A DNA stretch of 64,000 nucleotides from a virus. Positions 5,274-31,172 of the stretch are shown piece after piece (the stretch's first letter is position 1; each line of letters starts with the position of its first letter). The position numbers and the translations under genes were made by a program. The notes under the pieces were generated by a model. That model made no database searches, had not been told where the DNA came from, and was given only the letters and a program-made list of their open reading frames with translations. The stretch is taken from positions 29,163-93,162 of IMG/VR virus record IMGVR_UViG_3300044712_000557, one strand, 5' to 3'.

Positions 5274-5345
5274 GGGAGTGGGTGCTGAGCACGGGGCAGC
5301 CTCCAAAGCTGAACCGGCAGGGTTCGATTCCTTGCACTCCCGCCA
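5274..5345 (+). tRNA. tRNA-Trp(CCA)
   Basis: GGGAGTG/CACTCCC-G-CCA; CAGC-CTCCAAA-GCTG; short D arm. Confidence 0.85.
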
Positions 5346-5454
5346 TCCTGCTCGTGCCGAGAAGGGCATGAGAGCCAGTTGGAGGATGTAGCTGGCACGG
5401 CGCGCACTGATCGCCGGGATGTCTTTGACAACGCGGATCGTAAGTAACTACTGA

Positions 5455-5528
5455 GCGGCAGTGGTGTAGCGATAGCACGCGATTCTGCCAAGTTCGCAGT
5501 GCGGGTTTAACTCCCGCCTGCCGCTCCA
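5455..5528 (+). tRNA. tRNA-Gly(GCC)
   Basis: GCGGCAG/CTGCCGC-T-CCA; loop CTGCCAA. Confidence 0.85.
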
Positions 5529-5537
5529 AATTCGTAT

Positions 5538-5628
5538 GGGGGGTTAGCCTCAATCTGGTAAGGCACCCGGCTGTAACCCGGCGGTTGGTCACCATGCCAT
5601 CGTGGTTCAAATCCACGACTCCCCACCA
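5538..5628 (+). tRNA. tRNA-Tyr(GTA)
   Basis: CCGG-CTGTAAC-CCGG; long V arm; CCA. Confidence 0.9.
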
Positions 5629-5634
5629 TTCAGC

Positions 5635-5708
5635 GCGTCCTTGGTGTAGCACTAACACGCTATCCTTCCAAGTTAGAGTCGAGGGTGGGACTCCCTCAGG
5701 ACGCTCCA
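5635..5708 (+). tRNA. tRNA-Gly(TCC)
   Basis: GCGTCCT/AGGACGC-T-CCA; loop CTTCCAA; atypical T loop. Confidence 0.8.
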
Positions 5709-5778
5709 TCACAGCTAGGGCAAGAACGCGCCTAGCTAGCCGTGCCCCCGTGGTCCAGACTGGCCAGGGGGTTCGTTC

Positions 5779-5852
5779 GCCGCCCTAGTTCAATAGCAGA
5801 ATGGATCCTTGGTAAGGATCTGACATCGGAGCGTAACCGATGGGCGGCTCCA
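5779..5852 (+). tRNA. tRNA-Thr(GGT)
   Basis: GATCC-TTGGTAA-GGATC; GCCGCCC/GGGCGGC-T-CCA. Confidence 0.88.
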
Positions 5853-5853
5853 T

Positions 5854-5928
5854 CCCTCACAGGTGTTATGGCAGCATTCCAGGCTCTTAACCTGCGCGGT
5901 CAGAGTTCAAATCTCTGGTGGGGGACCA
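5854..5928 (+). tRNA. tRNA-Lys(CTT)
   Basis: CAGG-CTCTTAA-CCTG; T arm; CCA. Confidence 0.88.
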
Positions 5929-5933
5929 AATTC

Positions 5934-6011
5934 GCGAGTGTGACGGTAACTGGCAAACCTAGCAGGTCGAGAGCCTGCTGTTTGTGGGTTCAACTCCCAC
6001 CGCTCGCACCA
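5934..6011 (+). tRNA. tRNA-Leu(GAG), short variable loop
   Basis: GCAGG-TCGAGAG-CCTGC; A73; CCA. Confidence 0.85.
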
Positions 6012-6012
6012 T

Positions 6013-6088
6013 GCCAGCGTACTCCAACAGCAGAGAGACGCGACTCAGACTCGCGACAGTGGTGGTGCGAATCCACTCGCTGGCACCA
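6013..6088 (+). tRNA. tRNA-Leu(CAG), short variable loop
   Basis: CGCGA-CTCAGAC-TCGCG. Confidence 0.88.
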
Positions 6089-6089
6089 T

Positions 6090-6165
6090 GGCGCACTATC
6101 CCAACGGCAGAGGAACGGGTCTTAGAAGCCCGCAAGTCTGGGTTCAAATCCCAGGTGCGCCACCA
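6090..6165 (+). tRNA. tRNA-Leu(TAG), short variable loop
   Basis: CGGGT-CTTAGAA-GCCCG. Confidence 0.9.
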
Positions 6166-6258
6166 ACCTGACGTGCTTTGCGCCTATGACTCGTGATCCT
6201 TGAGGGGAGGGACACGACGAGGATGCGCTCCTTAAGCAAGAGTGAAACATTCCCTCAT

Positions 6259-6334
6259 CGGCACGTAGCCCAACGGCAGAGGCAGCAGCCTTAAAACCTG
6301 CTCAGTGAGAGTTCGAATCTCTCGGTGCCGACCA
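6259..6334 (+). tRNA. tRNA-Leu(TAA), short variable loop
   Basis: GCAGC-CTTAAAA-CCTGC. Confidence 0.85.
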
Positions 6335-6335
6335 T

Positions 6336-6413
6336 CGCCGACTGATGTAACTTGGCAAACATCCTCGTCTCAAAAACGAGGTCTTCTGGGTTCAACTCCC
6401 AGGTCGGCGACCA
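6336..6413 (+). tRNA. tRNA-Leu(CAA), short variable loop
   Basis: CTCGT-CTCAAAA-ACGAG. Confidence 0.9.
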
Positions 6414-6430
6414 TCTTGATTCTTCATGAA

Positions 6431-6509
6431 GGGGTACGAGAGAGCTTGGCGTTCTCTCTGCGTTGTCAGCGCAGGTAATCGGTGGGTTCAAATCCCACGT
6501 ACCCCGCCA
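6431..6509 (+). tRNA. tRNA-Asp(GTC)
   Basis: CTGCG-TTGTCAG-CGCAG; G73; CCA. Confidence 0.9.
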
Positions 6510-6525
6510 TGAGTAATCAAGAAGC

Positions 6526-6598
6526 AGGGGCAGGAGTGGGTTCGAATCCCACCATGAATGCGGGAGCGTTCGTGTGGTGTATAGGAAGCACGTCCCCT
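6526..6598 (+). ncRNA. circularly permuted tRNA-like module 1 (YrlA-like topology)
   Basis: T arm GTGGG-TTCGAAT-CCCAC, then acceptor hairpin CATGAATGC-GGGA-GCGTTCGTG, then D arm GTGT-ATAGGAA-GCAC; closed by AGGGG/CCCCT. Confidence 0.75.
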
Positions 6599-6609
6599 TA
6601 AAAGCATAA

Positions 6610-6726
6610 GCGGGTGGAGCGGTTCGACTCCGCACTGTCGCAGTGTCCTAGGAATCACACAGAGTGGTCATGCCCACGCGAAAGGCGCTCTGACGTGACA
6701 GCTTAGTGTAACGGTAGCACACCCGC
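6610..6726 (+). ncRNA. circularly permuted tRNA-like module 2
   Basis: GCGGGT/ACCCGC closing stem; T arm GCGG-TTCGACT-CCGC; CTGTCGC/GTGACAG acceptor enclosing a 53-nt insert; D arm GTGT-AACGGTA-GCAC. Confidence 0.75.
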
Positions 6727-6878
6727 ACATACCAAAGCACACACGAATGATCTTCCGATGCGTGCGCTCTACGGCTCTGCAGGGCCGGCGATACGAAGAT
6801 CATATTAGCCCCGTGGTACGAGCGCTGTGGAGCGCCTGTGGCCACAGCAGCGCAAACGGCCACGGGGTATTACAATTC

Positions 6879-6952
6879 GGGCGACGAGTAGGACGGGAAT
6901 ACGGCTGGTTTGCACCCAGCAAGACAGGGTTCGACTCCCTGGTTGTCCACCA
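6879..6952 (+). tRNA. tRNA-Ala(TGC)
   Basis: GCTGG-TTTGCAC-CCAGC; G3:U70. Confidence 0.9.
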
Positions 6953-7125
6953 AATACTGCCAGCGGTGATGCTGGTTGTGGGGATGCCGGCTATCCCACG
7001 GCGACTTCTTTGCGTGAGTGGAGCAATAGTAGTCGCAGATTAGTCCGGCCAGCGTGAAACGCAAGGTCACTCCTTAGTGACAGGGGGATCCGGCAATGCC
7101 TGAGGCATCCAGTACTCCCCCATTT

Positions 7126-7202
7126 GGCCTCGTCTTCTAACTGGTCGAGGATACTGCCCTCTCAAGGCGGCGATACCGGTTCGATCCCGGTCGAGGCTAC
7201 CA
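7126..7202 (+). tRNA. tRNA-Glu(CTC)
   Basis: CTGCC-CTCTCAA-GGCGG. Confidence 0.9.
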
Positions 7203-7217
7203 TCCGATAGGAGACGA

Positions 7218-7568
7218 ATGTCGTACGATCATAAGTTGTACATGAGAGAGTGGTACAAGAAGAACAAGAAGAAGCACGTTGGGTACGTTTCTTCTTCCAA
7301 GTCTTCTGTATGCCTCTACATCGACAACGCAAAGAGGTGCCCATGTTCCGACTGCGGGAAGACTTACCCCACTTATGTGATGCAGTTTGATCACGTCCGT
7401 GGTCGTAAGTTGGTAGCTCTCTCAAGAGCTGCCCAAAGCGGGCTTGGGATGCAAAGAGTCAAAGACGAGATAGCAAAATGCGAGGTTGTGTGCGCGAATT
7501 GCCACGCCGAGCGAACTCATCAAAGGTTGTTGTTGCGGGGTAGGGCAGTCCCTACACAAGTCTCATAA
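7218..7568 (+). CDS. HNH endonuclease (free-standing, in tRNA array)
   Basis: CSDCG..FDHVRG..KCEVVCANCH; AGGAG RBS. Confidence 0.88.
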   Translation: MSYDHKLYMREWYKKNKKKHVGYVSSSKSSVCLYIDNAKRCPCSDCGKTYPTYVMQFDHVRGRKLVALSRAAQSGLGMQRVKDEIAKCEVVCANCHAERTHQRLLLRGRAVPTQVS

Positions 7569-7606
7569 ACTTGATGGCGAGCGTGCAACTCGCTCCTCCG
7601 CTCCCA
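7534..7606 (+). tRNA. tRNA-Met(CAT), initiator-like acceptor stem
   Basis: TGCGGGG/CTCCGCT with 1:72 mismatch; CAAGT-CTCATAA-ACTTG; CCA. Confidence 0.72.
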
Positions 7607-7607
7607 T

Positions 7608-7682
7608 GGTTCTCTAGTGAAATGGCCATCACGACAGGCTTACACCCTGTTATTCAGAGTTCGAATCTCTGGGGAACCACCA
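7608..7682 (+). tRNA. tRNA-Val(TAC)
   Basis: ACAGG-CTTACAC-CCTGT. Confidence 0.9.
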
Positions 7683-7683
7683 T

Positions 7684-7757
7684 GGCAGTCCAAGATGGAG
7701 TTTCAGGCGCGCTCATAACGCGTATCTGGGCAGGTTCGAATCCTGCGGCTGCCACCA
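7684..7757 (+). tRNA. tRNA-Met(CAT), elongator (Ile2 not excluded)
   Basis: GCGCG-CTCATAA-CGCGT; GGCAGTC/GGCTGCC. Confidence 0.85.
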
Positions 7758-7840
7758 TCTACGGTTAGAAGTAGGCCCACTCAAATGAGAGCGACCCAGC
7801 GGAATTGCTAACCGCTCATCGGTTGCGTGTGGGTCTACTT

Positions 7841-7916
7841 GTGGCCGTAGTGTTAACGGTAAGCACGGGGAGTTGTGGCCTCCCTAGTCGCAGTTCAAAT
7901 CTGCGCGGTCACCCCA
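7841..7916 (+). tRNA. tRNA-His(GTG)
   Basis: GGGAG-TTGTGGC-CTCCC; C73; no encoded G-1. Confidence 0.9.
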
Positions 7917-7929
7917 ATTGAGGAGAGAG

Positions 7930-8217
7930 ATGCCAAGCAGGGGAGCGAAGCGTACTGGGCAGTTCAAGGCGAGGTATAAGCTACGCTACGAATTGATCAA
8001 CAGGCTAAAGGACAAGCCATGCGCTGAGTGTGGAAGTACGTTCCCGACATACGTGATGGAGTTTGATCATGTACGTGGCGAGAAGAAGTGCAACGTGCCA
8101 AAGTTGTGGCATTGCAGCGAGGCGGTCTTTCTAGAGGAAGTATCGAAGTGCGACGTGGTGTGTTCCAATTGCCACAAGATTCGCACGAGGACAAGAGTTC
8201 ACGGGGATGTAGGGTAG
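7930..8217 (+). CDS. HNH endonuclease (paralog of 7218-7568)
   Basis: PCAECG..FDHVRG..KCDVVCSNCH; GAGGAG RBS before ATG 7930. Confidence 0.88.
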   Translation: MPSRGAKRTGQFKARYKLRYELINRLKDKPCAECGSTFPTYVMEFDHVRGEKKCNVPKLWHCSEAVFLEEVSKCDVVCSNCHKIRTRTRVHGDVG

Positions 8218-8278
8218 TGGATTGCCCGCGTGGTTTGGGACCACGAAAGCGCAGGTTCGAGTCCTGTCATCCCCACCA
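8203..8278 (+). tRNA. tRNA-Pro(TGG)
   Basis: CGTGG-TTTGGGA-CCACG. Confidence 0.88.
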
Positions 8279-8344
8279 TTCGGGCGAGTAGCTGCGCCCT
8301 GCGAAGATTGACGCAGAACCTACGACGTAGGGGCTACACAGAAC

Positions 8345-8423
8345 GGGGATATAGAGAAGCCTGCATTTTCTCACTCGCTTCGGAGGCGAACAAGCGCTGG
8401 TTGAAATCCAGCTATCCCCACCA
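8345..8423 (+). tRNA. tRNA-Pro(CGG)
   Basis: TCGC-TTCGGAG-GCGA; GGGGATA/TATCCCC-A-CCA. Confidence 0.8.
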
Positions 8424-8650
8424 TCTCATGAGGCGGCTCGCCCAAGGAGCCGTACGCCCGATGCGAGTGAGCAGAAGGCTGAAGGTGCGACGGCATCGCT
8501 TGGGCACAGAATGTAGCGCGGGCAGTAAGCTAGACCATGGGGACGCTAAGCGCCCCTGGGTCAAGTGCTCCTCAATCCTTCCTGGCCTACGTGCTCACAC
8601 ACGTAGTGGATCGGAGCCTGGGCTGCCCCCACTTGAATTCATAGACTTAT

Positions 8651-8726
8651 TGGGGCTTAGCATAATGGCAGTGCGGTAGGCTCTGACCCTACGCCAATAG
8701 AGGTTCGACTCCTCTAGCCCCAGCCA
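8651..8726 (+). tRNA. tRNA-Gln(CTG)
   Basis: GTAGG-CTCTGAC-CCTAC; U1:A72; G73. Confidence 0.9.
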
Positions 8727-8734
8727 ACTTCCGT

Positions 8735-8811
8735 TCCTCAGTGGTGTAACTGGTAAGACCCCCGACTGTTAATCGGTGAGATTGTAGGTTCGAATCCTAC
8801 CTGAGGAGCCA
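8735..8811 (+). tRNA. tRNA-Asn(GTT)
   Basis: CCGA-CTGTTAA-TCGG. Confidence 0.9.
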
Positions 8812-8812
8812 T

Positions 8813-8887
8813 CCCTCGCAAGTGTTACGGCAGCATAGCGGGCTTTTAACCCGACAGGTCAGAGTTCGAATCTCTGGCGAGGGACCA
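8813..8887 (+). tRNA. tRNA-Lys(TTT)
   Basis: CGGG-CTTTTAA-CCCG; similar to Lys(CTT). Confidence 0.9.
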
Positions 8888-8894
8888 TTTCTAC

Positions 8895-8968
8895 GGGCTC
8901 TTAGTGAAACAGCATAACGCCTGCCTGATTAGCGGGAGTTCGCGGTGCGAATCCGTGAGAGCCTACCA
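8895..8968 (+). tRNA. tRNA-Ile(GAT)
   Basis: CCTGC-CTGATTA-GCGGG. Confidence 0.85.
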
Positions 8969-8974
8969 CTTCGT

Positions 8975-9050
8975 GCCGGTAAGGTGTCGAAGGAGACGCG
9001 CTCGCCTCGTAAGCGAGAGATGGCGGGTTCGATCCCCGTAACCGGCTCCA
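8975..9050 (+). tRNA. tRNA-Thr(CGT)
   Basis: CTCGC-CTCGTAA-GCGAG. Confidence 0.88.
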
Positions 9051-9054
9051 TCTC

Positions 9055-9206
9055 GGTGAGGGGCTGTGTTCGGCGTCTCGACAGTAAGAGACATGTGGTG
9101 CGGACACACCTGAGTTGCCCAGAGCGGATAAACACCGCCATGTATGGTAGCTTGGCACAGCGTAAAACGAAGGCGTCACTGCACGCCAACCTCACCTTTT
9201 CTTTTT
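9055..9206 (+). ncRNA. structured ncRNA of unknown family, followed by a U-tract
   Basis: GGTGAGG/CCTCACC and GCTGTGTT/GGCACAGC long-range stems, internal hairpins, then TTTTCTTTTT. Confidence 0.5.
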
Positions 9207-9238
9207 CGAGTCACGATCCGCAGACTCAAAGACCTTAA

Positions 9239-9314
9239 GCCGACTTAGCAATGACAGTTCATGCGCCCGCCTGAAGAGCGGGATATGTTGGGGCGGCACC
9301 AACAGTCGGCACCA
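9239..9314 (+). tRNA. tRNA-Phe(GAA)
   Basis: CCCGC-CTGAAGA-GCGGG; atypical T loop GGCGGCA. Confidence 0.85.
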
Positions 9315-9320
9315 TTCTAC

Positions 9321-9668
9321 GGGCCTTGGCCCAGCATATTCTGGGATGATCGATCTCAACGCAGATACCTCTCGGTGACAATTCTGCGGGTCCACCAGTT
9401 CGCCATGTGGGATCGCGAAAGGGTGGCGGAAAACCCGGAACCGCCAGCAAGAGTAACCTTAGGCGCGTGAAAGCTTCATGCTCGATATGGATGGCTGGGG
9501 CCAATGATAGGTTGCGACGACGGCTTACTTCTAGTGCCCCACATGGCACATCTCTATGGGACAGAAGACTCGCTGTTGTGTTCGTAAGCGTCAAGGATGG
9601 TACCGTCCTGAGCTACTACGGCACGATGGAGATCAGAAGACATCGTGGGGTAGGACCACACTGTCCCT
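9321..9668 (+). ncRNA. ~350 nt structured ncRNA of unknown family
   Basis: GCCATGTGGG/CCCACATGGC and GGGACAG/CTGTCCC multibranch domains; no convincing ORF. Confidence 0.5.
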
Positions 9669-9675
9669 CAATTCT

Positions 9676-9747
9676 TGCCGGTCGAGCTAGGCTCAGAGCG
9701 GTCCTGTAAACCGCCCTTGCTCGGTGCGATACCGAGGACCGGCTCCA
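9676..9747 (+). tRNA. tRNA-Thr(TGT)
   Basis: GCGGT-CCTGTAA-ACCGC; minimal D arm. Confidence 0.8.
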
Positions 9748-9751
9748 CTTC

Positions 9752-9826
9752 GGGGTCATACGCCAACGGCTAAGCGGACTGCCTTTCAAGCAGTTGATGA
9801 GGGTTCAATTCCCTCTGACCCTACCA
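9752..9826 (+). tRNA. tRNA-Glu(TTC)
   Basis: ACTGC-CTTTCAA-GCAGT. Confidence 0.9.
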
Positions 9827-9831
9827 TCTAT

Positions 9832-9902
9832 GCCGGGAAGAGCAACGCTGGACGGCACGGCTACCGCAATGGTCGGCTGCATAGGATCCAGCCCCGGCAC
9901 CA
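9832..9902 (+). ncRNA. aberrant tRNA-like RNA with CCA end, identity unclear
   Basis: GCCGGG/CCCGGC-A-CCA plus three non-canonical arms. Confidence 0.55.
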
Positions 9903-9907
9903 TCTGT

Positions 9908-9984
9908 CCTCCCGTAGCCCTAAGGATAGGGCACCAGCCCCCGAAGCTGGAGCTTAGTGGGTTCGATTCCCACCGGGAGTACCA
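9908..9984 (+). tRNA. tRNA-Arg(CCG)
   Basis: CCAGC-CCCCGAA-GCTGG. Confidence 0.85.
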
Positions 9985-10050
9985 TCCAAAGGAGTCGCAA
10001 TGAGCAACGGAGGAACGTCATGCTTATGTAGCTAAGGAGGCTACCCAAGC

Positions 10051-10221
10051 ATGGCTGCTTCGAACGATCGTTCCGCGAAGGACAAGCAGATGGCTGCGCG
10101 TCTGAAGGCTGAAGGTGATGACCGGCACATCGGCCGCTGCTGCATCTGCTACCGTATCATCTCCAACGGCGCTGCGTGCGAGAACCACTACGGTGCTCAC
10201 GCGCGTGGTGCTAGCGACTAA
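10051..10221 (+). CDS. 56-aa Zn-finger-like small protein (not in the ORF track)
   Basis: AAGGAGG RBS; MAASNDRSAKDKQMAARLKAEGDDRHIGRCCICYRIISNGAACENHYGAH... Confidence 0.7.
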   Translation: MAASNDRSAKDKQMAARLKAEGDDRHIGRCCICYRIISNGAACENHYGAHARGASD

Positions 10222-10277
10222 GCAGTATAGCTGCGGGCGACAGCTAAGTGGGGCTCATGCCGCCACATCGCCCTCAT

Positions 10278-10354
10278 GGCCCATTCGTTCAACTGGATGA
10301 GGATACCGGGCTACGAACCCGGAGATTGCAGTTCGAATCTGCAGTGGGCCACCA
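10278..10354 (+). tRNA. tRNA-Arg(ACG)
   Basis: CCGGG-CTACGAA-CCCGG. Confidence 0.92.
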
Positions 10355-10358
10355 TCTT

Positions 10359-10433
10359 GGCGCTATAGCTCAACGGACAGAGCGCGAGTTTCCTAAACTC
10401 AAGGTCCGAGTTCGACTCTCGGTAGCGCCTCCA
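10359..10433 (+). tRNA. tRNA-Arg(CCT)
   Basis: GAGT-TTCCTAA-ACTC. Confidence 0.9.
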
Positions 10434-10445
10434 ACCTAGGAGCAT

Positions 10446-10631
10446 ATGGAACACCCAAGTGGATTCCCAATGAGTTCTTCGTTCTCCGTTGCTGTCAGAG
10501 TGCAAGATGACAATGGAGTCACCATCAAGCAAGAGCAGTTCTCGCTGACTGGCTACTTCAAGGACTCCTCCGAGATGTTAGCTAAAGCAGTCGAGTGGAC
10601 GGACAAACAGAAGAGAGAAGCTAGAGAGTAA
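10446..10631 (+). CDS. hypothetical protein
   Basis: AGGAG RBS; coupled to the next ORF. Confidence 0.6.
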   Translation: MEHPSGFPMSSSFSVAVRVQDDNGVTIKQEQFSLTGYFKDSSEMLAKAVEWTDKQKREARE

Positions 10632-11176
10632 TGGACTCAGAGACAAAGGCCGGGTTGAGCGTGATCCTTGGAACCTTCCTCGCAGTCATCCTGCTGTCGT
10701 GGGTGGTCCAGGGAAACGACTGCTGGATGTTCAAGATCTTCGCACCGAAGTACGAGCAGCAGGAGATTCTTCTAAAGGAGGCAGCCGCCCAGACCGGGAT
10801 GCCTGCTATTGCAAACTTCCGAGAGCGCAAGCTTCTCAAGGACATCATCGAGCTTCGTGACCAGAACGGGCTCGTGACCTATACGTACGTTTGGAACGAG
10901 TTCAATGGAAAGATGGTATTCTTCTGCGATAGCATCGGGTATGGAATCCCGTACGCTACGCAGTACACTTCCCCGGAGAAGATGGTCGGATACAACAGTG
11001 CGCCGGCCGTGGTTCCCCAGGCAGATCCCAACGGGCTCTTCTCCCCGGCATCAGCCGAGGGCACCTGGGTCATGTGTAAGAACCCCAACGGAAAGGAAGT
11101 GCGCCCTGTTTACGTAGAACCGCGCATCATCGTCTCCCCGTTCCCACTGACGAAACAGCCAGCGGAGCAGAACTAG
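10631..11176 (+). CDS. membrane-anchored phage protein
   Basis: N-terminal TM helix; SIGYGIPYATQYTSP..QADPNGLF..EGTWVMC..YVEP motif. Confidence 0.75.
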   Translation: MDSETKAGLSVILGTFLAVILLSWVVQGNDCWMFKIFAPKYEQQEILLKEAAAQTGMPAIANFRERKLLKDIIELRDQNGLVTYTYVWNEFNGKMVFFCDSIGYGIPYATQYTSPEKMVGYNSAPAVVPQADPNGLFSPASAEGTWVMCKNPNGKEVRPVYVEPRIIVSPFPLTKQPAEQN

Positions 11177-11260
11177 AATCAACAGGGTCTGTTGATTCAC
11201 AGCGAGTGTCGAGAAATCAACCGGTCGTGCGCTGTGACCGTACTCGCGACAGCGCGCCAT

Positions 11261-11338
11261 GGCCCCTTGGTGTAACCCGGACAAGCATACTTGGCTTCTA
11301 ACCTTGAGGCGACAGTTCGAATCTGTCAGGGGCCTCCA
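11261..11338 (+). tRNA. tRNA-Arg(TCT)
   Basis: loop CTTCTAA; GGCCCCT/AGGGGCC. Confidence 0.85.
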
Positions 11339-11344
11339 TCTTTC

Positions 11345-11438
11345 AGTGGCGTAGTGTATGGCAGCACGGGGGGACTTATAAACCCTATAGCGCCAGATTA
11401 GCGCACCGGATTGGGTTCGATTCCCAACGCCACTACCA
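11345..11438 (+). tRNA. tRNA-Ile(TAT) with long variable arm
   Basis: loop CTTATAA; V arm GCGC-CAGATTA-GCGC. Confidence 0.8.
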
Positions 11439-11439
11439 T

Positions 11440-11530
11440 GGAAGGGATGATCGAGTTGGCAGATCACCTACCTGCTAAGTAGGACAGCCCTCATAAGGCT
11501 GCGAGAGTTCGATTCTCTCCCCTTCCGCCA
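11440..11530 (+). tRNA. tRNA-Ser(GCT)
   Basis: CCTAC-CTGCTAA-GTAGG; V arm; G73. Confidence 0.9.
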
Positions 11531-11543
11531 CCTTAGTGAGACT

Positions 11544-11906
11544 ATGGAAAAACCAAGGCGTCTTCTGTTTTCGGTCACGGCGAAGGACTTAGATATCCAG
11601 ACCTTCTGTACGGGTGGCAATGGAGGCCAGCACAGGAACGCCAAGCAGAATGGCGTACGACTCATCCATCGGGCCTCAGGAGCCCGCGCAGAGCATCGGG
11701 ACGGACGGGACCAGGGGAAGAACCGCAGGGAGGCCTTCCTGAAGCTCCTAGAGACTCCAGAGTGGAAGGCGTGGTCGAAGATGGAAGTCTCCAGAAGGCT
11801 AGGACTGATCACTGCGGCTGAGAATGCTGTAGAGGAAGCCATGGCAGCTCCCAACCTACGTATCGAGGTTAAGGGAGACGACGGCACATGGCACGAGATT
11901 GAATAA
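11544..11906 (+). CDS. peptide chain release factor domain (GGQ) peptidyl-tRNA hydrolase, ArfB/PrfH-like
   Basis: GGNGGQHRNAKQNGVRLIHRASG..RDQGKNRREAF. Confidence 0.88.
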   Translation: MEKPRRLLFSVTAKDLDIQTFCTGGNGGQHRNAKQNGVRLIHRASGARAEHRDGRDQGKNRREAFLKLLETPEWKAWSKMEVSRRLGLITAAENAVEEAMAAPNLRIEVKGDDGTWHEIE

Positions 11907-11907
11907 C

Positions 11908-11981
11908 GGTAGGCATGCTTAGGGACATAGCCGAGATTCGAACCTTTGGCTAGCTGGGTTCGAATCCCAGGCCTACCGCCA
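11908..11981 (+). tRNA. atypical tRNA, anticodon CGA (Ser), extended anticodon stem, no V arm
   Basis: GGTAGGC/GCCTACC-G-CCA; AGCCGAG(A)-TTCGAAC-(C)TTTGGCT; canonical T arm. Confidence 0.7.
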
Positions 11982-11996
11982 TCTTAAGGAGAAACG

Positions 11997-12212
11997 ATGT
12001 GTTGCTGTAGATGTAGCCGTGCGCACGACGAGGCTATTGCCGACATGGTTCTGGCGGAAGCTATCCTGACGGAGCATGCCTTTCGGGCTATGCACCCAAA
12101 CCTCCACCCAGCCGTTGAGGAAAGGATGATTAGGCTGGGCAGCCTTATCTCTCCTGGCCTCAATGAGTCGATGCTGGCCTATCTTACCAAGCTGTGGAGA
12201 CTAGCTAAGTGA
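11997..12212 (+). CDS. hypothetical protein
   Basis: AAGGAG RBS. Confidence 0.6.
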   Translation: MCCCRCSRAHDEAIADMVLAEAILTEHAFRAMHPNLHPAVEERMIRLGSLISPGLNESMLAYLTKLWRLAK

Positions 12213-12493
12213 AAGACTTCCTAGGAAAAGAGATCACGGTCGGATGCCTGATCGCGTATCCGGCGCGCATGAGTTCTTCAGTCTGGATGAACGTCGCGCG
12301 AGTCGTTGGATTTAGCACACGCAAGGATACCTGGGCTAGGAAGAACGTTCCATCTCTCAAGCTGAAGCGCGTGTCTAGCACAGACAGCTACTTCAAGCCT
12401 GGGACCACCACAGAGATCTACGCCCTCGACAACGTACTCGTGCTTGAGGAGGCAGATGTCCCGAAGCAAGAAGAGGCCGTACACCAAGAGTAA
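12209..12493 (+). CDS. hypothetical protein (SH3/KOW-like)
   Basis: MKDFLGKEITVG..IAY pattern common in phage proteins. Confidence 0.6.
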   Translation: MKDFLGKEITVGCLIAYPARMSSSVWMNVARVVGFSTRKDTWARKNVPSLKLKRVSSTDSYFKPGTTTEIYALDNVLVLEEADVPKQEEAVHQE

Positions 12494-12704
12494 GCGCTTC
12501 GACGCGACATGTCGTAGCCATGGCGGTTGCCCGTACTGCCAGGGGAATCGAAAGCATTCGACCAATCGTAGGAGCTATCCATTGCGGGCAGAGGTAGCCG
12601 AAGGCGTTTGGTCATTTGAGGAGTGGCAAGCTAGTGAAGAAGGGTGCAACCGAGATTGTTGTCGTACTCGACCGTTCGGGGTCGATGCAGAGCACGAAGA
12701 CTGA
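12456..12704 (+). CDS. small basic Cys/His phage protein
   Basis: GGAGG RBS; SKRFDATCRSHGGCPYCQGNR. Confidence 0.55.
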   Translation: MSRSKKRPYTKSKRFDATCRSHGGCPYCQGNRKHSTNRRSYPLRAEVAEGVWSFEEWQASEEGCNRDCCRTRPFGVDAEHED

Positions 12705-13335
12705 CGCAGAGGGCGGCCTGAAGGCATTCGTGGAGAAGCAGCGAGAACTTCCCGGCGAGTGCGTGCTGACCCTGTATCGATTTGACGATACGATCGAGCG
12801 CGTCTTTGAGGAGAAGCCTCTGGTACGAGTCGAGCCATACGACCTCCAGTTGGTCCCTAGGGGTTCTACGGCCCTCCTAGACGCCATGGATCGAGCCATC
12901 GATGAGGTGGGATCGCGTCTCGCTCGTCGTGCCGACTATGATCGTCCAGAGTTCATCTACTTCGTGACGATCACAGATGGCTACGAGAACGCCTCCAGGA
13001 AGGCCTCTCCCGCCAGCGTCTTCGATAAGGTTACGCATCAGCGTGACAAGTACGGCTGGCAGTTCGTCTTCATCGGTGCCAACCAGGACGCTATCGCCAC
13101 GGCTTCGAAGCTGGGTATCGGGGCGCAGTACTCCCTTACATATCGTGATAGCTCCATGGGTACCAAGAGTGCTTACAACAGCATGAGCGACGGCATCCTG
13201 CGTTCTCGCCAGCTTGGCGGGCAGGCTGTGTGCTTTACCGCTCAGGAGCGCACGGAGGCCATGGCCAGCGATGACGACATCAAGGCTCTTAAGACGACCT
13301 TCGGAACATCGAGTGTGACAACTCCAAGAAAGTAA
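12634..13335 (+). CDS. von Willebrand factor A (vWA) domain protein
   Basis: MIDAS VLDRSGSM, GSTALLDA, ITDGYENAS, FVFIGANQDA. Confidence 0.9.
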   Translation: MKKGATEIVVVLDRSGSMQSTKTDAEGGLKAFVEKQRELPGECVLTLYRFDDTIERVFEEKPLVRVEPYDLQLVPRGSTALLDAMDRAIDEVGSRLARRADYDRPEFIYFVTITDGYENASRKASPASVFDKVTHQRDKYGWQFVFIGANQDAIATASKLGIGAQYSLTYRDSSMGTKSAYNSMSDGILRSRQLGGQAVCFTAQERTEAMASDDDIKALKTTFGTSSVTTPRK

Positions 13336-13336
13336 C

Positions 13337-13858
13337 GTGATGGCCTCAAAATGGAAGACTCTCAGCGGGGAGAACATCGCTGACATCGTGCAGTTCCTGA
13401 AGGACTCTAACCGCCATGGTCAGATCCTTCACGTTGGTACAGACTCGCTGCAGACTGGAAGGTACACGCAGTTTGTGACTGTCGTGGTCCTGCTGAACCC
13501 CAGGCGTGATGGGGTGGGATCTGGCGGCAGGGTCTTTTATCAGAGAGACATCGTTCCCCGCATCAACTCACTACGCGAGCGGCTTACTAAGGAAGTTTGG
13601 AAGTCGCTCGACCTTGCCATGCAACTGCCTGAGTTTGACTTGACTGTGCATATCGATGCCAACCCATCGGAGAAGCATATGTCCAGCAAGTACCTGCAGG
13701 AGCTGGTTGGGATGGTCGTAGGGCAAGGGTTCAAGGCGCTGTGGAAGCCAGATAGCTGGGCCGCAACGCATGCCGCCGACCACGTCGTACGAATCAAAGG
13801 GAGACTGCCGAGCACTGGTGCTCAACTGGGCTTGAACCCCAGGGTAGCCACTGGCTAG
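13337..13858 (+). CDS. RNase H-like YkuK (DUF458) family protein
   Basis: VGTDS..FVTVVV..RERL..EV..S..VHIDAN..KPDSWAATHAADH. Confidence 0.85.
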   Translation: MMASKWKTLSGENIADIVQFLKDSNRHGQILHVGTDSLQTGRYTQFVTVVVLLNPRRDGVGSGGRVFYQRDIVPRINSLRERLTKEVWKSLDLAMQLPEFDLTVHIDANPSEKHMSSKYLQELVGMVVGQGFKALWKPDSWAATHAADHVVRIKGRLPSTGAQLGLNPRVATG

Positions 13859-13884
13859 GGGTTCGATCCCTCCAGTCTCCGCCA
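13800..13884 (+). tRNA. tRNA-Ser(TGA), 8/4 fold
   Basis: GGAGACTG/CAGTCTCC-G-CCA; CTGGG-CTTGAAC-CCCAG; V arm TAGCC/GGCTA; 4-bp T stem. Confidence 0.85.
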
Positions 13885-14031
13885 CTCTAAGAGCGCCACA
13901 AACTATCTGGTTCCAATGGGGTCTACGTTGTGGCCCGGCGCTGAACCCTGCAATCCCCTCTAAGCGGGGAATAATGTCCGCATCCCCCTGGGAAGCTTAG
14001 CTCTGCAGGGGGCTTTCCTTACTGAGGCGTA

Positions 14032-14460
14032 ATGCTTGTTGGAATAGTCGGCGTCGAAGCAGCAAAGCTGGACGCCCCAACCAAAGAGAGAGCGCTGATC
14101 AGGCTAGAGCAGATCATCTCTAGCCCACATACATCTCTCGTCGTGAGCGGGCATTGCCATCTAGGGGGGATTGACATACTCGCCGAGGAGACAGCAGCAA
14201 GGCTAGGCAAGCCTTTCCTGATCTTCCCTCCCAAGAACTTGCAGTGGTCCACTGGCTACATGCCTCGCAATCTACAGATCGTCAAGTTCAGCGATGTCGT
14301 CATCTGCCTAACGGTCAAGGAGCTTCCTGAAGGCTACGACGGGATGCGCTTCGACCTCTGCTACCATTGCGGGACTAAGGAGCATATCAAGAGCGGGGGA
14401 TGCTGGACCGTCAAGCAGGCAATCAAGGCAGGAAAGAAGGGACGCGTAGAGGTCATATGA
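14032..14460 (+). CDS. SLOG/DprA-like (YspA-type) protein
   Basis: VGIVG..VVSG..GGIDILAE..RNLQIV..SGG.WTV..A..GK. Confidence 0.7.
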   Translation: MLVGIVGVEAAKLDAPTKERALIRLEQIISSPHTSLVVSGHCHLGGIDILAEETAARLGKPFLIFPPKNLQWSTGYMPRNLQIVKFSDVVICLTVKELPEGYDGMRFDLCYHCGTKEHIKSGGCWTVKQAIKAGKKGRVEVI

Positions 14461-14780
14461 GCGATGACTTGGATTACGAACAGTTAGACCCTGGGATCAT
14501 AGGACTCGTAGCTCTCCTGCGCGCCCATGGGTTCGAAACGACTGACTCTGGCGATGGAGTGAGCAAGAAGGCCAAGGGGATCGATGATGCATTGCCCTAC
14601 CCTCACGTCTTCTGCGTGGTCGACCCAGATAGACTCGTCATCGAGGCTAAGAGAGCTTGGCACACGTTGAACGTCTATCCAGAGTACGAAGATCTCTCTA
14701 TCGAGGCTAGCTACAGCCCCGATGACAACGCTGCGATTCTTGCCATCTATGGCAACGTCGTCTCTGGTGGGAGCTTGTAG
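14457..14780 (+). CDS. hypothetical protein
   Basis: LDPGI..LV..L...GFETTDSGDG motif; ATGA coupling to upstream gene. Confidence 0.65.
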   Translation: MSDDLDYEQLDPGIIGLVALLRAHGFETTDSGDGVSKKAKGIDDALPYPHVFCVVDPDRLVIEAKRAWHTLNVYPEYEDLSIEASYSPDDNAAILAIYGNVVSGGSL

Positions 14781-14837
14781 GACAGAGGCGGGCTTGGAAA
14801 GCTCGCCGTTCGGGTTCGACTCCCGATCCCACCGCCA
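14766..14837 (+). tRNA. atypical tRNA, anticodon GGA (Ser), 7-bp anticodon stem, no V arm
   Basis: GGTGGGA/TCCCACC-G-CCA; GGCGGGC-TTGGAAA-GCTCGCC; TCGGG-TTCGACT-CCCGA. Confidence 0.75.
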
Positions 14838-14904
14838 CTCTCGTGGCCATGATAGTTATCGTGGCCATGTTCGAAGTTACTGAACGATCCGCGAAGTTGA
14901 ACAT

Positions 14905-14981
14905 GTGGATGTCGCCAAGAGGCTCAAGGCGCTAGGCTGCAACCCTAGTATTCGGTGGTTCAAATCCACTCATCCACTCCA
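14905..14981 (+). tRNA. tRNA-Cys(GCA)
   Basis: CTAGG-CTGCAAC-CCTAG; U73. Confidence 0.92.
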
Positions 14982-14982
14982 C

Positions 14983-15057
14983 AGGGCCTTGGCCGAGAGG
15001 ACTAGGCAGCGGGCTTTGACCCCGCTAAGACAGGTTCGATTCCTGTAGGCCCTGCCA
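14983..15057 (+). tRNA. tRNA-Gln(TTG)
   Basis: GCGGG-CTTTGAC-CCCGC. Confidence 0.9.
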
Positions 15058-15243
15058 ACCTCCCAGAAAGAAGGCTATACGTGTCTGCTGTGTCTGGCCC
15101 CGTTGATATGAGGATGCGTCTCTCTGAGCTAGAGAATGAATGGATGGACCGCGATACGATCTCGCTGGGGTTCCTGGCGAGGGCGCTGTTCCTGATAGCC
15201 GCGATCCTCATCTTGATCCTAGAGTCTATGCAGGAGAAGCAGT

Positions 15244-15597
15244 ATGTGTGAAGACTGCGTCGAAGCCGATGCGGAGCGTGATCGACTGGAGTTAGAGCGT
15301 CAGCTAGTCGACCTTCTTGAGAAGTACGAAGCTGCCAACAGCAAGCTTGAATCTGCCGAGTCTAGAGCTTCTACCCTGGAGGCTGCCCTGCGAGGCGTAC
15401 ACGGGGTCGTACTTGACGATGGCTATGAGGTCAATGTAGCCGACCTAAAGGGACGCCTAGACGAGATCGCCGATCTCCATCAGCCGTTAGAGCTTCACGG
15501 GGAGATCCTCGTAGACAACTGTGGTCGGTCGAAGTGTGGGGGGTGCCTAGGAGTTTGGCCCTGCGCGACTGATAGTCTTCTCCACCGAGAGCCTTAA
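15244..15597 (+). CDS. hypothetical protein with CxxC...WPC motif
   Basis: AGGAG RBS; coiled coil then CGGCLGVWPCAT. Confidence 0.65.
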   Translation: MCEDCVEADAERDRLELERQLVDLLEKYEAANSKLESAESRASTLEAALRGVHGVVLDDGYEVNVADLKGRLDEIADLHQPLELHGEILVDNCGRSKCGGCLGVWPCATDSLLHREP

Positions 15598-15748
15598 TCC
15601 GCACCTCGCCCCCTCCTTTTCGTAGATCGATCAGGCCCGCATGATATGTGGGCCTCATTCGATAGGCGAAATCGTCTACGATACACATCCAATATCGGAG
15701 TGTACATCCTCAGCGAGGCGCATTAGCGGAGAACTCTTGCTAAGCGGC

Positions 15749-15783
15749 AAGGGGCGGGAAGAGGGATCCTCCCGCCCCTTTTT
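15749..15783 (+). terminator. intrinsic terminator between the convergent arms
   Basis: AAGGGGCGGGA/TCCCGCCCCTT + TTT. Confidence 0.75.
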
Positions 15784-15784
15784 A

Positions 15785-16018
15785 CTATCGTCGTGGACCG
15801 TTGACGATAATAGGCCCCGGTCGATGCTGGGTCTTGTCGAATGGAGATTCCTTGGGGGCATAGATTCCACCACCGCCCATCGGATTCCCATCCCTGTCCA
15901 GTAGAATCTCAGTACCCCCAGGCAACGTAACCTTGCTGCCCCTGATGGCGTCCAAGACCTTCCTGATTGGGCCGCTCTTGATGAACGCGCGCAGGATGTC
16001 GCCTAGTGGGAATCCCAT
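15785..16018 (-). CDS. hypothetical protein
   Basis: Last ORF of the virion arm. Confidence 0.55.
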   Translation of the reverse strand: MGFPLGDILRAFIKSGPIRKVLDAIRGSKVTLPGGTEILLDRDGNPMGGGGIYAPKESPFDKTQHRPGPIIVNGPRR

Positions 16019-28475: not shown

Positions 28476-31172
28476 CTAGAATGTCTTCCAGTCTCGACGG
28501 ATCCAATCCATGGTCCAATGGGCAACAGTAGTAGCTCCATATTGGTCTAGCTGCAGATTGAAGTGATGCACCGTCATGGTCTTAGTGTATGTCCCTACCT
28601 GGAACCATACTTCTCCGTCCAACGACCCCCACACCGACCAGACAGACCCAGTCCTCTGAAGATGGATATATGAGACATGCAGCGCTGCTACGGCCTGACT
28701 GGATCGATTGTATGTCCAGCTACTGCTATCCTTCGTTGCCAGTCTGAACCCCCATCCTCCATAGTACTGAGCGTATGCCATAACGGCATCGCTTTCATCG
28801 CTGTCATAGGCTATCAACCTAACGTTCTGATAGCTAGTAAATGGAGTGATGCCAAACTTCCACGTCAGAGAAAAGTCTCCAGCGGGGGCGTACGCCTGGG
28901 AGATTTCCCACGTAGCGTTTCCGGGCAGCTTCAGCGTAATCCTAGACGATGGAGAATTATAGGCAATCACCGGAGATCCAGTGTTGATCGTAACGCTCCA
29001 TTTGGCGTCTAGGCTGCTACCCGTAAACTCGTCATCCTGGGTATTAGGAGATCCAGGAGGAGTGTCGGGACTCCACAAGCTAGACCCTCCAGATGCGGCC
29101 ACCGTAACGTTTACTCGGTCGTTGCCCGCGTCATCGGCCACCGTTAGCGTTACGTTAGATCCCTCTACTAGGTTTACATTCTTTCGGGTACCTACAAGTG
29201 ATCCGGCCTTAGAGACTTGGATCTTCTGCGCATCGGCCAACAACCCCGAAAGCCCCGTTACTCCGATTTCGTCTGCCCCACCATCCTGATGAGACGAGGC
29301 GTGTGATGCAGGAGTTCCTGCCGCCGCTGGCTTCCAAGTAGACGTAGCTGACTCGTATGCCAGCACATTAGTGTTGGCTGCGCCAGCAGTATCAACGTCA
29401 GTCAGATCGTTTAGAGCGCTAGCTCCACCGCCGCCACCAGTGCTCCATACCACGCCACCAGCTCCATTGGGGGCCAGCCTCTTACTTGTGTCCGTCTCGG
29501 AGGCACTCATCGCCGTGATAGGGTGAGCCGGGAAGTCGCTTCGCCCACTAAGAGAATTGTGAACTGTTGCGCTCCCAGACTGAGTTATCTGAATCCCCTT
29601 GGCGTGGATGAGGGTCACTGCCACGATCCGCGACTTATGCGTTCCTGCATATGTAGATTTACAGTGAAGCGTCAACTTCGCAATCGGCACTACCTCTTCG
29701 AATGGCAACGTGCCCCAGGATAGAGTTAGGTAGTCCTCCCCCTGAGCTGACGCCAATGTTGCATGGGTAGCTTGTCCTGGAATCCACGCGAACTGTTTGG
29801 CAGCAACGTTGCATGGATGCGCCGCCAGGAACACGTTCATATAGTTCCCGCTGGATAGCCCGTCCATCTCCGTGAGCTGCCAAGCTCCACCAGTTAGCTG
29901 GTTCCACTTCGGGTATGTTGTCCCGCTGATGAACGGGAAGGTTGGAGTGTCATCCCAGACCCATTCTCCCGTGGCTCCAGTACGGTACATGACATGGTAT
30001 GGACCGCCATCAGATACGGCAGACAGGGTTCTAACTACGTCCTCGTCGGCGATGATTGCCGAAGCTACAGCGGGCGTAATCGCCGCATCGGAGTCAGTAT
30101 CCAGCGTGTACCCAGTGATTGCTGCTCCTGAGATTAACTCCGTCCCCTCAGTGAAGTGGTGAGTATAATGCTCCCAGATATCCCTCTCGGCACCATGGGC
30201 TTCGAAGTAGGAGATCCCATCAGAGAGCGTATTGGAATAATAGACCGCAGCTACTGGAATAACCGTGCGGTCCAAGATGGACCATGGGGTGGCCACGGCA
30301 CTTACGGACAATACTCCGCTTGCATTGTAGTAGAAGTAGTACATGCCCGTAGATGTGCCATGCCCAGTCCCAGCGGTTTCTGTGGTCTTGACATACTTCA
30401 CGCCATCAATCCAGATGGTGAAGTTCGCACCGGTTGGAGTAACCGTGATCTTGCGAGTAGTCTTGTCGTAAGAGATCGTTACCAGGGCCGATCCATCGGT
30501 AGCCCTCTTGAATCCATGCTTCCTCTGGTAAAGATCGTGGTCATCATCGCCTAATCCCGTTAGGGCCAATCCATGATCCAGAGTGCCGCAGTTCGCAGCA
30601 TTCTGGTGCGTGTGATCTGGCACCTCAGAAGCTAGCCCCCCAGACGCCTCTTCTTTTAGGTATTGAGTATGGTCATCATCCAGGAGTCCGGCGATATCAC
30701 TGCCGTGATCGATCTGCCTAGGCTCGCCATAGTTGGAGCTGGCATTCCAGAATACAACATCCTTATCAACAAGAGTCTCTCTATTGATATTGGAAAGCTC
30801 ATACATGGACGGCAGTACAGTGATGTTTACTGCAACATCAAAAATACCGCCACCATGCCCGTACGATACGGTGCCGATCATCACCTGTGGCGTGGGGGCT
30901 ACCGGACGAGTATTGGTTAGCACCCCACCAAGCTTGGCCCAGAGAGTGTCTCCTACGGCCCATGTGTCTCCGCTGGTCTGCGTCATAGACCTAAGTAGGC
31001 CCTTGCGCAATACCCATACCTTTTGCCCAACTGTAGAGTCGGACATCGTAACGCCGGCAATTTTGTGGCCGTTGGATAGCCCTGGCTTTTCTGCTGCGCC
31101 TGACCATACCTGGATAGTGGGAGTAGCCCCTCCCGATCCGCCATGCTGGACGACAGTTCCCCTTAGGATCAC
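28476..31172 (-). CDS. tail fibre/receptor-binding protein with C-terminal lectin-like domain
   Basis: GLLDDDHTQY repeats, LNDLTDV, HASSHQDGGADEI, DDEFTGSSLDAKW. Confidence 0.75.
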   Translation of the reverse strand: MILRGTVVQHGGSGGATPTIQVWSGAAEKPGLSNGHKIAGVTMSDSTVGQKVWVLRKGLLRSMTQTSGDTWAVGDTLWAKLGGVLTNTRPVAPTPQVMIGTVSYGHGGGIFDVAVNITVLPSMYELSNINRETLVDKDVVFWNASSNYGEPRQIDHGSDIAGLLDDDHTQYLKEEASGGLASEVPDHTHQNAANCGTLDHGLALTGLGDDDHDLYQRKHGFKRATDGSALVTISYDKTTRKITVTPTGANFTIWIDGVKYVKTTETAGTGHGTSTGMYYFYYNASGVLSVSAVATPWSILDRTVIPVAAVYYSNTLSDGISYFEAHGAERDIWEHYTHHFTEGTELISGAAITGYTLDTDSDAAITPAVASAIIADEDVVRTLSAVSDGGPYHVMYRTGATGEWVWDDTPTFPFISGTTYPKWNQLTGGAWQLTEMDGLSSGNYMNVFLAAHPCNVAAKQFAWIPGQATHATLASAQGEDYLTLSWGTLPFEEVVPIAKLTLHCKSTYAGTHKSRIVAVTLIHAKGIQITQSGSATVHNSLSGRSDFPAHPITAMSASETDTSKRLAPNGAGGVVWSTGGGGGASALNDLTDVDTAGAANTNVLAYESATSTWKPAAAGTPASHASSHQDGGADEIGVTGLSGLLADAQKIQVSKAGSLVGTRKNVNLVEGSNVTLTVADDAGNDRVNVTVAASGGSSLWSPDTPPGSPNTQDDEFTGSSLDAKWSVTINTGSPVIAYNSPSSRITLKLPGNATWEISQAYAPAGDFSLTWKFGITPFTSYQNVRLIAYDSDESDAVMAYAQYYGGWGFRLATKDSSSWTYNRSSQAVAALHVSYIHLQRTGSVWSVWGSLDGEVWFQVGTYTKTMTVHHFNLQLDQYGATTVAHWTMDWIRRDWKTF

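Follow-up and report, generated by a model that had tools for sequence, protein, structure and literature searches.

The window analysed here is a 64,000-nucleotide stretch (positions 29,163 to 93,162) of the virus record IMGVR_UViG_3300044712_000557. The record measures 93,162 bp, has direct terminal repeats and is rated 100% complete. The plus strand of the window carries an array of transfer RNA (tRNA) genes from position 5274 to 15057, all with an encoded CCA. Within this phage array lie two genes with serine anticodons, tRNA-Ser(GGA) and tRNA-Ser(CGA), which lack the long variable arm of bacterial class II tRNA-Ser and have a compact core. They are a real, conserved and previously unannotated tRNA variant.

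Structure and conservation of the compact tRNAs

In tRNA-Ser(GGA), assigned to sub-type a, a 7-bp acceptor stem (14766-14772 paired with 14827-14833) is followed by G73 (14834) and the CCA end (14835-14837). A 2-nt linker (14773-14774) leads into a D arm with a 4-bp stem (14775-14778 with 14782-14785) and the 3-nt loop AGG. A single unpaired A separates the D arm from a 7-bp anticodon stem (14787-14793 with 14801-14807), which is closed by a 7-nt loop (14794-14800) with the anticodon at 14796-14798, and a 2-nt variable region precedes a canonical T arm (14810-14826). By thermodynamic prediction, the minimum free energy (MFE) fold is this same compact cloverleaf. Under the Rfam tRNA model (RF00005) the gene reaches 28.8 bits, just short of the gathering score of 29, and under the covariance model R1, described below, it reaches 83.5 bits.

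tRNA-Ser(CGA), assigned to sub-type b, agrees with tRNA-Ser(GGA) in its 7-bp acceptor stem, its 2-nt variable region, its normal T arm and G73-CCA. Position 8 is already paired, so that no linker precedes the D arm, whose stem has 3 bp (11915-11917 with 11926-11928) and whose loop has 8 nt. Seven base pairs (11929-11935 with 11945-11951) make up the anticodon helix, and an invariant A.C juxtaposition lies between them and the loop. The gene was not detected by ARAGORN and gave no Rfam match even at E<=1. It was found at 54.3 bits by R1, a model made solely from relatives of sub-type a, and it scores 100.3 bits under a second model, R2, with eight homologues in other contigs. The first-pass annotation had described both elements with these acceptor stems, T arms, 7-bp anticodon stems and 2-nt variable linkers, all of which the sequence confirms. 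Its further claim that the two share one fold is correct as regards the general layout, in which the anticodon stem is extended, the D arm reduced, the variable region 2 nt long and the variable arm missing, but not as regards the details of the D arm, hence the division into two sub-types.

Both genes possess the hallmarks of elongator tRNAs, namely a 7-bp acceptor stem, a discriminator, a 3' CCA, a T arm and the D-loop GG. Neither has the canonical tRNA core, in which positions 8-9 form a 2-nt linker, the D stem has 4 bp and its loop 7-11 nt, the anticodon stem has 5 bp, and the variable region either spans 4-5 nt or forms a long arm. The class II variable arm, longer than 10 nt and with a stem, is also absent, as 2 nt separate the anticodon and T stems.

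Searches of deposited phage genomes returned no match by megablast of positions 11000-16000 or by tblastn of the open reading frame (ORF) at 14400-14777, and only distant actinophage matches (<40% identity) for the vWA ORF; used as a search handle in IMG/VR, the ORF at 14400-14777 also retrieved no relatives. Related loci were gathered with two conserved neighbours as handles, an RF-1-domain ORF and an RNaseH-like ORF that adjoins the Ser tRNAs (Table 1). About 130 loci were obtained in this way from IMG/VR and from soil and sediment metagenomes, and their arrays are syntenic with the window. tRNAs were detected in them with ARAGORN and with the covariance models R1 (27 sub-type a sequences) and R2 (5 sub-type b sequences). 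Together with ARAGORN, the covariance search for homologues that the first-pass annotation had proposed recovered 38 distinct compact Ser-anticodon tRNAs of 72-75 nt from related uncultivated phages (CGA 23, GGA 9, UGA 3 and GCU 3), and the same loci contain 105 distinct class II tRNA-Ser. A gap separates the R1 scores, with the compact Ser class at 68 bits or more and all else at 61 bits or less.

Exact-pattern scans for either sub-type yielded no contigs beyond those already gathered. A geometry pattern for armless NGA tRNAs, a narrow test with fixed spacing, found none in IMG/VR outside the clade; among the 52 stretches that it returned, those outside the clade were ordinary Gln and Arg tRNAs in a shifted register, none of which scored with R1. 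This narrow scan gave no sign of the compact Ser design beyond the clade, and we found no description of an armless tRNA-Ser of phages or bacteria in the open-access literature.

To assess the helices, RNAalifold was applied to a plain, structure-blind MAFFT alignment. It predicted the 7-bp acceptor stem, the 7-bp anticodon stem and the 5-bp T stem, with compensatory changes in 15 of the 19 predicted pairs. When the full compact structure was counted on the structure-blind alignment, 94.9% of the cells were paired, compared with 73% in shuffles and 38-54% with the partners slid, and changes on both sides were found in 19 of 24 pairs, six of them in the 7-bp anticodon stem and four among the 5 pairs of the D stem. 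In the model-fitted alignment of sub-type a, 97.3% of the cells are paired. The acceptor helix is paired in 100% (sub-type a) and 98% (sub-type b) of cases across the homologues, with five covarying pairs. The T helix is 99-100% paired and retains the 5-bp T stem and the T-loop consensus TTCRANY, and the D-loop GG is kept across the compact alignment. The homologues and their covariation place these helices far beyond chance.

These data bear on the idea that the two genes are decaying tRNA-Ser pseudogenes whose variable arm was lost by deletion. The sub-threshold or absent Rfam scores, the gene missed by ARAGORN and the class II genes in the same slots of sister phages could all be read in that way. 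Such decay is nonetheless extremely unlikely in view of 38 distinct sequences with 95-99% of their cells paired, many double compensatory changes in all four helices, and intact anticodon loops, D-loop GG, T loop and CCA. The conserved homologues in many related phages and the compensatory changes in every helix thus uphold the earlier proposal of a real tRNA class, and comparative sequence evidence indicates that both loci are real conserved tRNA genes that are selectively maintained.

For tRNA-Ser(CGA) only, one can also draw an ordinary class-I cloverleaf in which the D stem starts at position 10, the anticodon stem has 5 bp and the variable loop 5 nt; this fold pairs 93.1% of its cells. 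We regard this structure as improbable. Across sub-type b it shows no covarying D-stem pair and four mismatched D-stem cells, one homologue disrupts its pair 11-24 while a double change preserves the extended anticodon helix, and eight of the nine sequences have a mismatch at its loop-closing pair 30-38. The compact fold, in contrast, has 99.5% of its cells paired in the nine sub-type b sequences, its pair 8-22 covaries (U-A, A-U, G-C), as do the extension pairs of the anticodon helix, and for the window sequence it is about 6 kcal/mol more stable. An alternative fold with a restored variable arm, a possibility raised by the first-pass annotation, was found neither by RNAalifold or RNAfold nor by comparison with the canonical cloverleaf.

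In this compact core, a D stem of 3-5 bp, whose loop retains the GG, would stack directly on the 7-bp anticodon stem, the variable region being 2-3 nt long, and Watson-Crick pairs would replace the normal tertiary core layers 8-14, 15-48 and 26-44. The acceptor/T branch and the elbow stay canonical. Whereas the helices themselves derive from covariation, the replacement of core layers is suggested by counting stacked layers: the D stem and the 7-bp anticodon stem, with one unpaired nucleotide between them in some members, would amount to 11-12 layers, and a canonical tRNA would also have about 12 (4-bp D stem, 5-bp anticodon stem, 26-44, 8-14 and 15-48). Since the counts are comparable, the dimensions of the L-shape could persist while a helix takes the place of the tertiary core.

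Table 1. Features of the tRNA array, in window coordinates
Feature	Position	Strand	Size	Detection
Compact tRNA-Ser(GGA), sub-type a	14766-14837	+	72 nt	ARAGORN
Compact tRNA-Ser(CGA), sub-type b	11908-11981	+	74 nt	R1 covariance model
Class II tRNA-Ser(GCU), long variable arm	11440-11530	+	91 nt	ARAGORN
Class II tRNA-Ser(UGA), variable arm	13800-13884	+	85 nt	ARAGORN
Compact tRNA-Trp(CCA)	5274-5345	+	72 nt	R1 covariance model
Compact tRNA-Thr(UGU)	9677-9747	+	71 nt	Covariance search
tRNA-Arg(CCG)	~9908-9984	+		Covariance search
Five tRNA-Leu (GAG, CAG, UAG, UAA, CAA)	5934-6413	+	76-78 nt	
tRNA with UAU anticodon (Ile AUA)	11345-11438	+	94 nt	
ORF with RF-1 (GGQ) domain (PF00472)	11544-11906		120 aa	
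RNaseH-like (PF04308) ORF	13337-13858	+		

Serine slots, acceptor signature and codon use

ARAGORN counts 34 tRNAs in the array, and covariance searches add Trp(CCA), Thr(UGU), Arg(CCG) and Ser(CGA); the phage tRNA set is near-complete. Four Ser anticodons are represented by one gene each, GCU and UGA by class II genes and GGA and CGA by the compact ones, and sister phages have an ordinary long-arm tRNA-Ser in the same array slot. Wherever an array has three or more Ser genes, each Ser anticodon is represented by a single gene, except in two arrays, of which one has two compact CGA genes and the other two class II CGA genes. A given Ser slot holds a class II or a compact gene, and the arrays combine the two kinds in many ways; in one relative all three UCN decoders are compact, and others carry a compact GCU gene. 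Given one tRNA per Ser anticodon per genome, the compact genes replace class II genes and do not add to them. On a single short-protein tree with weak support the state of the CGA slot changes at least 12 times, a count that shows merely that the two states interleave.

The pairs G1-C72 and G2-C71 are present in all 38 compact genes, and G73 in 36 of them. This acceptor profile is common to the compact and the 105 class II genes, with invariant G1-C72 and G2-C71, mostly A3-U70, and G73 accompanied by a U73 minority, and 10 of the 17 compact acceptor strands recur among the class II genes. The signature occurs in 97% of the Ser-anticodon tRNAs of the arrays and is rare or partial in other families; the other phage tRNA families obey the usual bacterial discriminator rules. 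Moreover, the commonest compact Ser(CGA) form and one tRNA-Ser(UGA) from a candidate host (see below) have identical acceptor stems. Compact forms span UCN and AGY anticodons, that is, both of the unrelated Ser codon boxes, and a single class serving both fits a synthetase that ignores the anticodon, namely seryl-tRNA synthetase (SerRS).

Among the Ser codons of the phage, UCU and UCC together account for 38.5% and UCG for 20%, so the compact tRNAs, which would decode these three, may serve about 59% of them. Alignment with homologues matched UCC with Ser in 80% of cases, UCG in 64% and UCA in 72%, compared with 51% for AGC. In addition, direct reading of the window sequence shows that both serines of the vWA DxSxS motif are encoded by UCG. 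Charging with an amino acid other than serine, by which the phage would partly recode UCY and UCG, is therefore very unlikely. Such recoding is conceivable in that, without a variable arm, recognition by SerRS weakens and another synthetase could step in, and in that G73 and G1-C72 are common to several identities. Beyond the codon alignments, in which UCC, UCG and UCA pair mainly with Ser and at least as often as AGC does, it is opposed by the absence of G3.U70, pair 3-70 being A-U, U-A or C-G in 38 of 38 genes, and by the occurrence of NGA and GCU anticodons in one class. Most synthetases except AlaRS, LeuRS and SerRS use the anticodon as an identity element. The absence of a PF00587-type core and of a SerRS N-arm from the phage genome, reported next, also speaks against recoding.

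A phage synthetase, which the first-pass annotation had suggested looking for in the rest of the genome, did not emerge: neither a class II core of the PF00587 type nor a SerRS N-arm (PF02403) was found in the complete phage genome. As the complete phage genome lacks SerRS, any charging of the compact tRNAs must fall to the host. Ordinary serine decoding is the best reading of these sequences, and the two compact tRNAs are very probably serine decoders; within the four-member Ser set they occupy the slots for GGA and CGA, where sister phages carry class II tRNA-Ser. The earlier suggestion of mis-decoding or of a decoy found little favour in the evidence, since slot replacement, acceptor signature, the combination of UCN and AGY anticodons and the codon alignments all lean towards ordinary serine decoding.

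Candidate host, charging and variable-arm toxins

When the RNaseH-like protein was compared with a genome collection, all nine matches fell in metagenome-assembled genomes (MAGs) of Acidobacteriota, mostly Vicinamibacteria, one of them on a 581-kb contig. A compact Ser(CGA) gene is carried by one MAG contig, which is phage-like, and a search of the candidate-host genomes with R1 gave its sole strong match on this contig. The host probably belongs to the Acidobacteriota. Four RNaseH-like relatives (L137-L140, 53-57% identity) adjoin a tRNA-Leu(CAG) on long Acidobacteriota MAG contigs, including the one of 581 kb, and may be prophages or another mobile element.

According to a review, tRNA-Ser keeps its long arm everywhere except in animal mitochondria, and in E. 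coli the identity for LeuRS is independent of the variable arm, whereas that for SerRS depends on it (PMC9976931). Host SerRS would most likely serylate the compact tRNAs through the acceptor end alone, that is, through G1-C72, G2-C71 and G73. On balance we favour, with moderate confidence, the view that both loci are functional phage tRNA genes with a compact core that fill the GGA and CGA Ser slots and are likely serylated by host SerRS.

A speculative reason for the armless design is that these tRNAs might stay usable when a toxin of the AbiEii/MenT type inactivates host tRNA-Ser through its long arm. MenT3 is a nucleotidyltransferase toxin of the DUF1814/AbiEii family, which was first found in abortive-infection systems (PMC7450476, PMC11162799, PMC11541572). 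It selects tRNA-Ser by the long variable loop, the deletion of which abolishes efficient modification (PMC11162799, PMC11541572), and grafting the Ser loop onto another tRNA transfers the modification (PMC7450476, PMC11162799, PMC11541572). AbiEii-family genes were found in 4 of 5 candidate-host MAGs, compared with 3 of 14 control genomes, and the MAG holding the phage contig contains 19 matches. The full scenario, in which a clade of soil phages repeatedly swapped class II for armless Ser tRNAs that a standard SerRS serylates through the acceptor alone and that are invisible to AbiEii/MenT-type toxins, is doubtful when taken as a whole.

Several observations weigh against serylation by the host, or against its link to toxins. 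The host assignment comes from MAG binning and from one relative on a long chromosomal contig. Each of the five candidate-host MAGs encodes a SerRS with a normal N-terminal arm domain, and the Ser tRNAs of candidate hosts (from two MAGs, plus one from a third) are all class II, with 89-94 nt; with a standard SerRS and solely class II tRNA-Ser in the host, efficient charging of an armless tRNA would be unexpected. The anticodon helix of tRNA-Ser(CGA) is rich in G.U pairs, in addition to the invariant A.C beside the loop, and the MFE structure given by RNAfold is a misfold that pairs the anticodon region with the T loop. This preference arises because the palindrome TTCGAA is present in both loops (window 11937-11965), a hazard inherent to any U33-CGA-A37 tRNA with a consensus T loop. 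As to toxins, AbiEii genes are widespread in bacteria, so that their presence lends weak support, and the phage retains long-arm Tyr, Ser(GCU), Ser(UGA) and UAU tRNAs, which speaks against a general avoidance of variable arms.

The missing SerRS determinant and the standard host SerRS would also suit structured, expressed RNAs that are not aminoacylated and that either act as regulators or sequester, as decoys or sponges, such factors as tRNA-targeting toxins, nucleases and modification enzymes, with UCN decoding left to host tRNAs. Irregular Acidobacteria-associated tRNAs that are charged but unused, or uncharged, provide a precedent (Mukai et al., PMC5389517). We nevertheless consider such a role unlikely, because a decoy could dispense with an intact 7-nt anticodon loop bearing a single defined Ser anticodon, with a slot-for-slot replacement of class II genes that keeps one gene per Ser anticodon, and with the full acceptor-end Ser signature and encoded CCA. 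If its targets were toxins that recognise the variable arm, the decoy would itself require that arm. Serine tRNAs charged by the host thus remain the reading that we prefer.

Relation to known tRNAs and to the rest of the array

The closest known design is mitochondrial (mt) tRNASer(UCN), followed by tRNA-Pyl, and membership in either is excluded by defining features; the first-pass annotation had chosen these same two for comparison, aptly (PMC7609411). Mammalian mt-tRNASer(UCN) of 'type I' resembles the compact tRNAs in its Ser UCN anticodon, the lack of a long arm, the extended anticodon stem and the small D loop, as well as in a shortened acceptor-D linker and variable region, with G18G19, the T-loop consensus and the L-shape kept (PMC7609411). 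The two differ in the anticodon stem (6 bp in the mitochondrial tRNA, 7 bp in the phage), the variable region (3 nt versus 2-3 nt) and the linker (1 nt versus 0-2 nt). Furthermore, mt-tRNASer(UCN) is charged by a specialised mt-SerRS that reads the T loop, whereas in the phage case a standard bacterial-type SerRS is in sight, and their origins, an organelle and a phage of soil bacteria, are unrelated. Among the features of the mitochondrial type, the phage tRNAs thus have the extended stem, the short variable region and G18G19 with T-Psi-C, the D loop of sub-type b being 8 nt long, and lack the 1-nt acceptor-D linker (2 nt or absent here), the mitochondrial origin and the dedicated mt-SerRS.

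tRNA-Pyl of the M. barkeri, D. hafniense and M. alvus types shares with the phage tRNAs a compact core, a small D loop, G73 and G1-C72 (PMC7609411). Its anticodon stem is 6 bp long, its variable region 3 nt and its acceptor-D spacing 0-1 nt, and it is charged independently of the anticodon (PMC7609411). The M. barkeri type carries a CUA anticodon, lacks G18G19 and T54-Psi55-C56 and needs PylRS, whereas the phage tRNAs have a canonical elbow and Ser anticodons; the GGA and CGA anticodons together with the elbow consensus rule out membership. The substitution of a helix for the tertiary core is a logic common to mt-tRNASer(UCN), tRNA-Pyl and tRNA-Sec (features according to PMC7609411; the layer count is inferred here).

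With the bacterial class II tRNA-Ser of the phage, its sister phages and the candidate hosts, the compact genes have in common the anticodons, the array slot and the acceptor signature, some acceptor stems being identical; they differ in the absence of the long arm, the main SerRS determinant, and in a remodelled D arm and anticodon stem. The type I tRNA-Leu of Streptomyces coelicolor (Fan et al. 2019, PMC6614811) is comparable as a short-arm form of a long-arm family that is charged by the single cellular synthetase, but its core is otherwise of the ordinary class-I kind and LeuRS is arm-independent in E. coli. The (8/4) tRNA-Ser and allo-tRNAs (Mukai et al., PMC5389517) are also non-canonical, with Ser identity, longer D and anticodon stems, and an occurrence in Acidobacteria-related soil and phage clusters. 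They have an 8/4 or 9/3 acceptor/T branch and a long variable arm, whereas the compact phage tRNAs are 7/5 and armless; the covariation-supported 7/5 branch and the missing variable arm exclude membership. The class II tRNA-Ser(UGA) of the window has tRNA-Sec as its top Rfam match (37.3 bits, below threshold), and RNAfold gives it an 8-bp acceptor stem, a 5-bp D stem and a 4-nt loop, a shape that resembles that of published (8/4) tRNA-Ser.

Ser is not the sole compact family of this clade, which also has compact Trp, Thr and Gln tRNAs. The Trp(CCA) gene of the window, missed by ARAGORN, has a 4-bp D stem, a 3-nt loop and tandem G.A mismatches in a long anticodon helix. Thr(UGU), missed as well, lacks the 8-9 linker and has C33 and an odd T loop. 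Arg(CCG), the third gene that ARAGORN misses, reaches an Rfam score of 47.9 bits. Two related loci (L102, 8226-8298, and L210) contain a compact UUG (Gln) tRNA that has A1-U72 and G73, shares the mini D arm and has 6 bp in its anticodon stem.

Other members of the array are also unusual. The five tRNA-Leu genes, with a 4-6-nt variable loop and A73, are of type I and not of the usual bacterial class II, and the same is true of most related arrays. The tRNA with a UAU anticodon has A73 and a long, class II-like variable region. The arrays of the related viral contigs L006, L008 and L011 include CUA-anticodon tRNAs, possible amber suppressors that ARAGORN calls 'Pyl', and one 98-nt tRNA that received a four-base anticodon call. 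Of the two protein-coding neighbours, the RNaseH-like protein is the most conserved marker of the clade. The RF-1-domain ORF (E=2e-11), within the tRNA array, shows 53-75% identity across 27 viral contigs, a conservation that suggests a putative phage peptidyl-tRNA hydrolase or ribosome-rescue factor.

As standard annotation misses or under-scores compact tRNAs, phage tRNA complements are under-counted. If the compact tRNAs are not serylated, these phages would maintain anticodon-bearing RNAs for another purpose. If they are serylated, bacterial SerRS would have a biologically relevant, arm-independent mode of recognition, and armless tRNAs would be compact scaffolds of interest for tRNA engineering. 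The possible link to toxins that read the variable arm offers a concrete hypothesis of defence and counter-defence. Across a whole phage clade, armless Ser tRNAs that are clearly under structural selection are kept and stand in for normal ones, in likely hosts with an ordinary SerRS.

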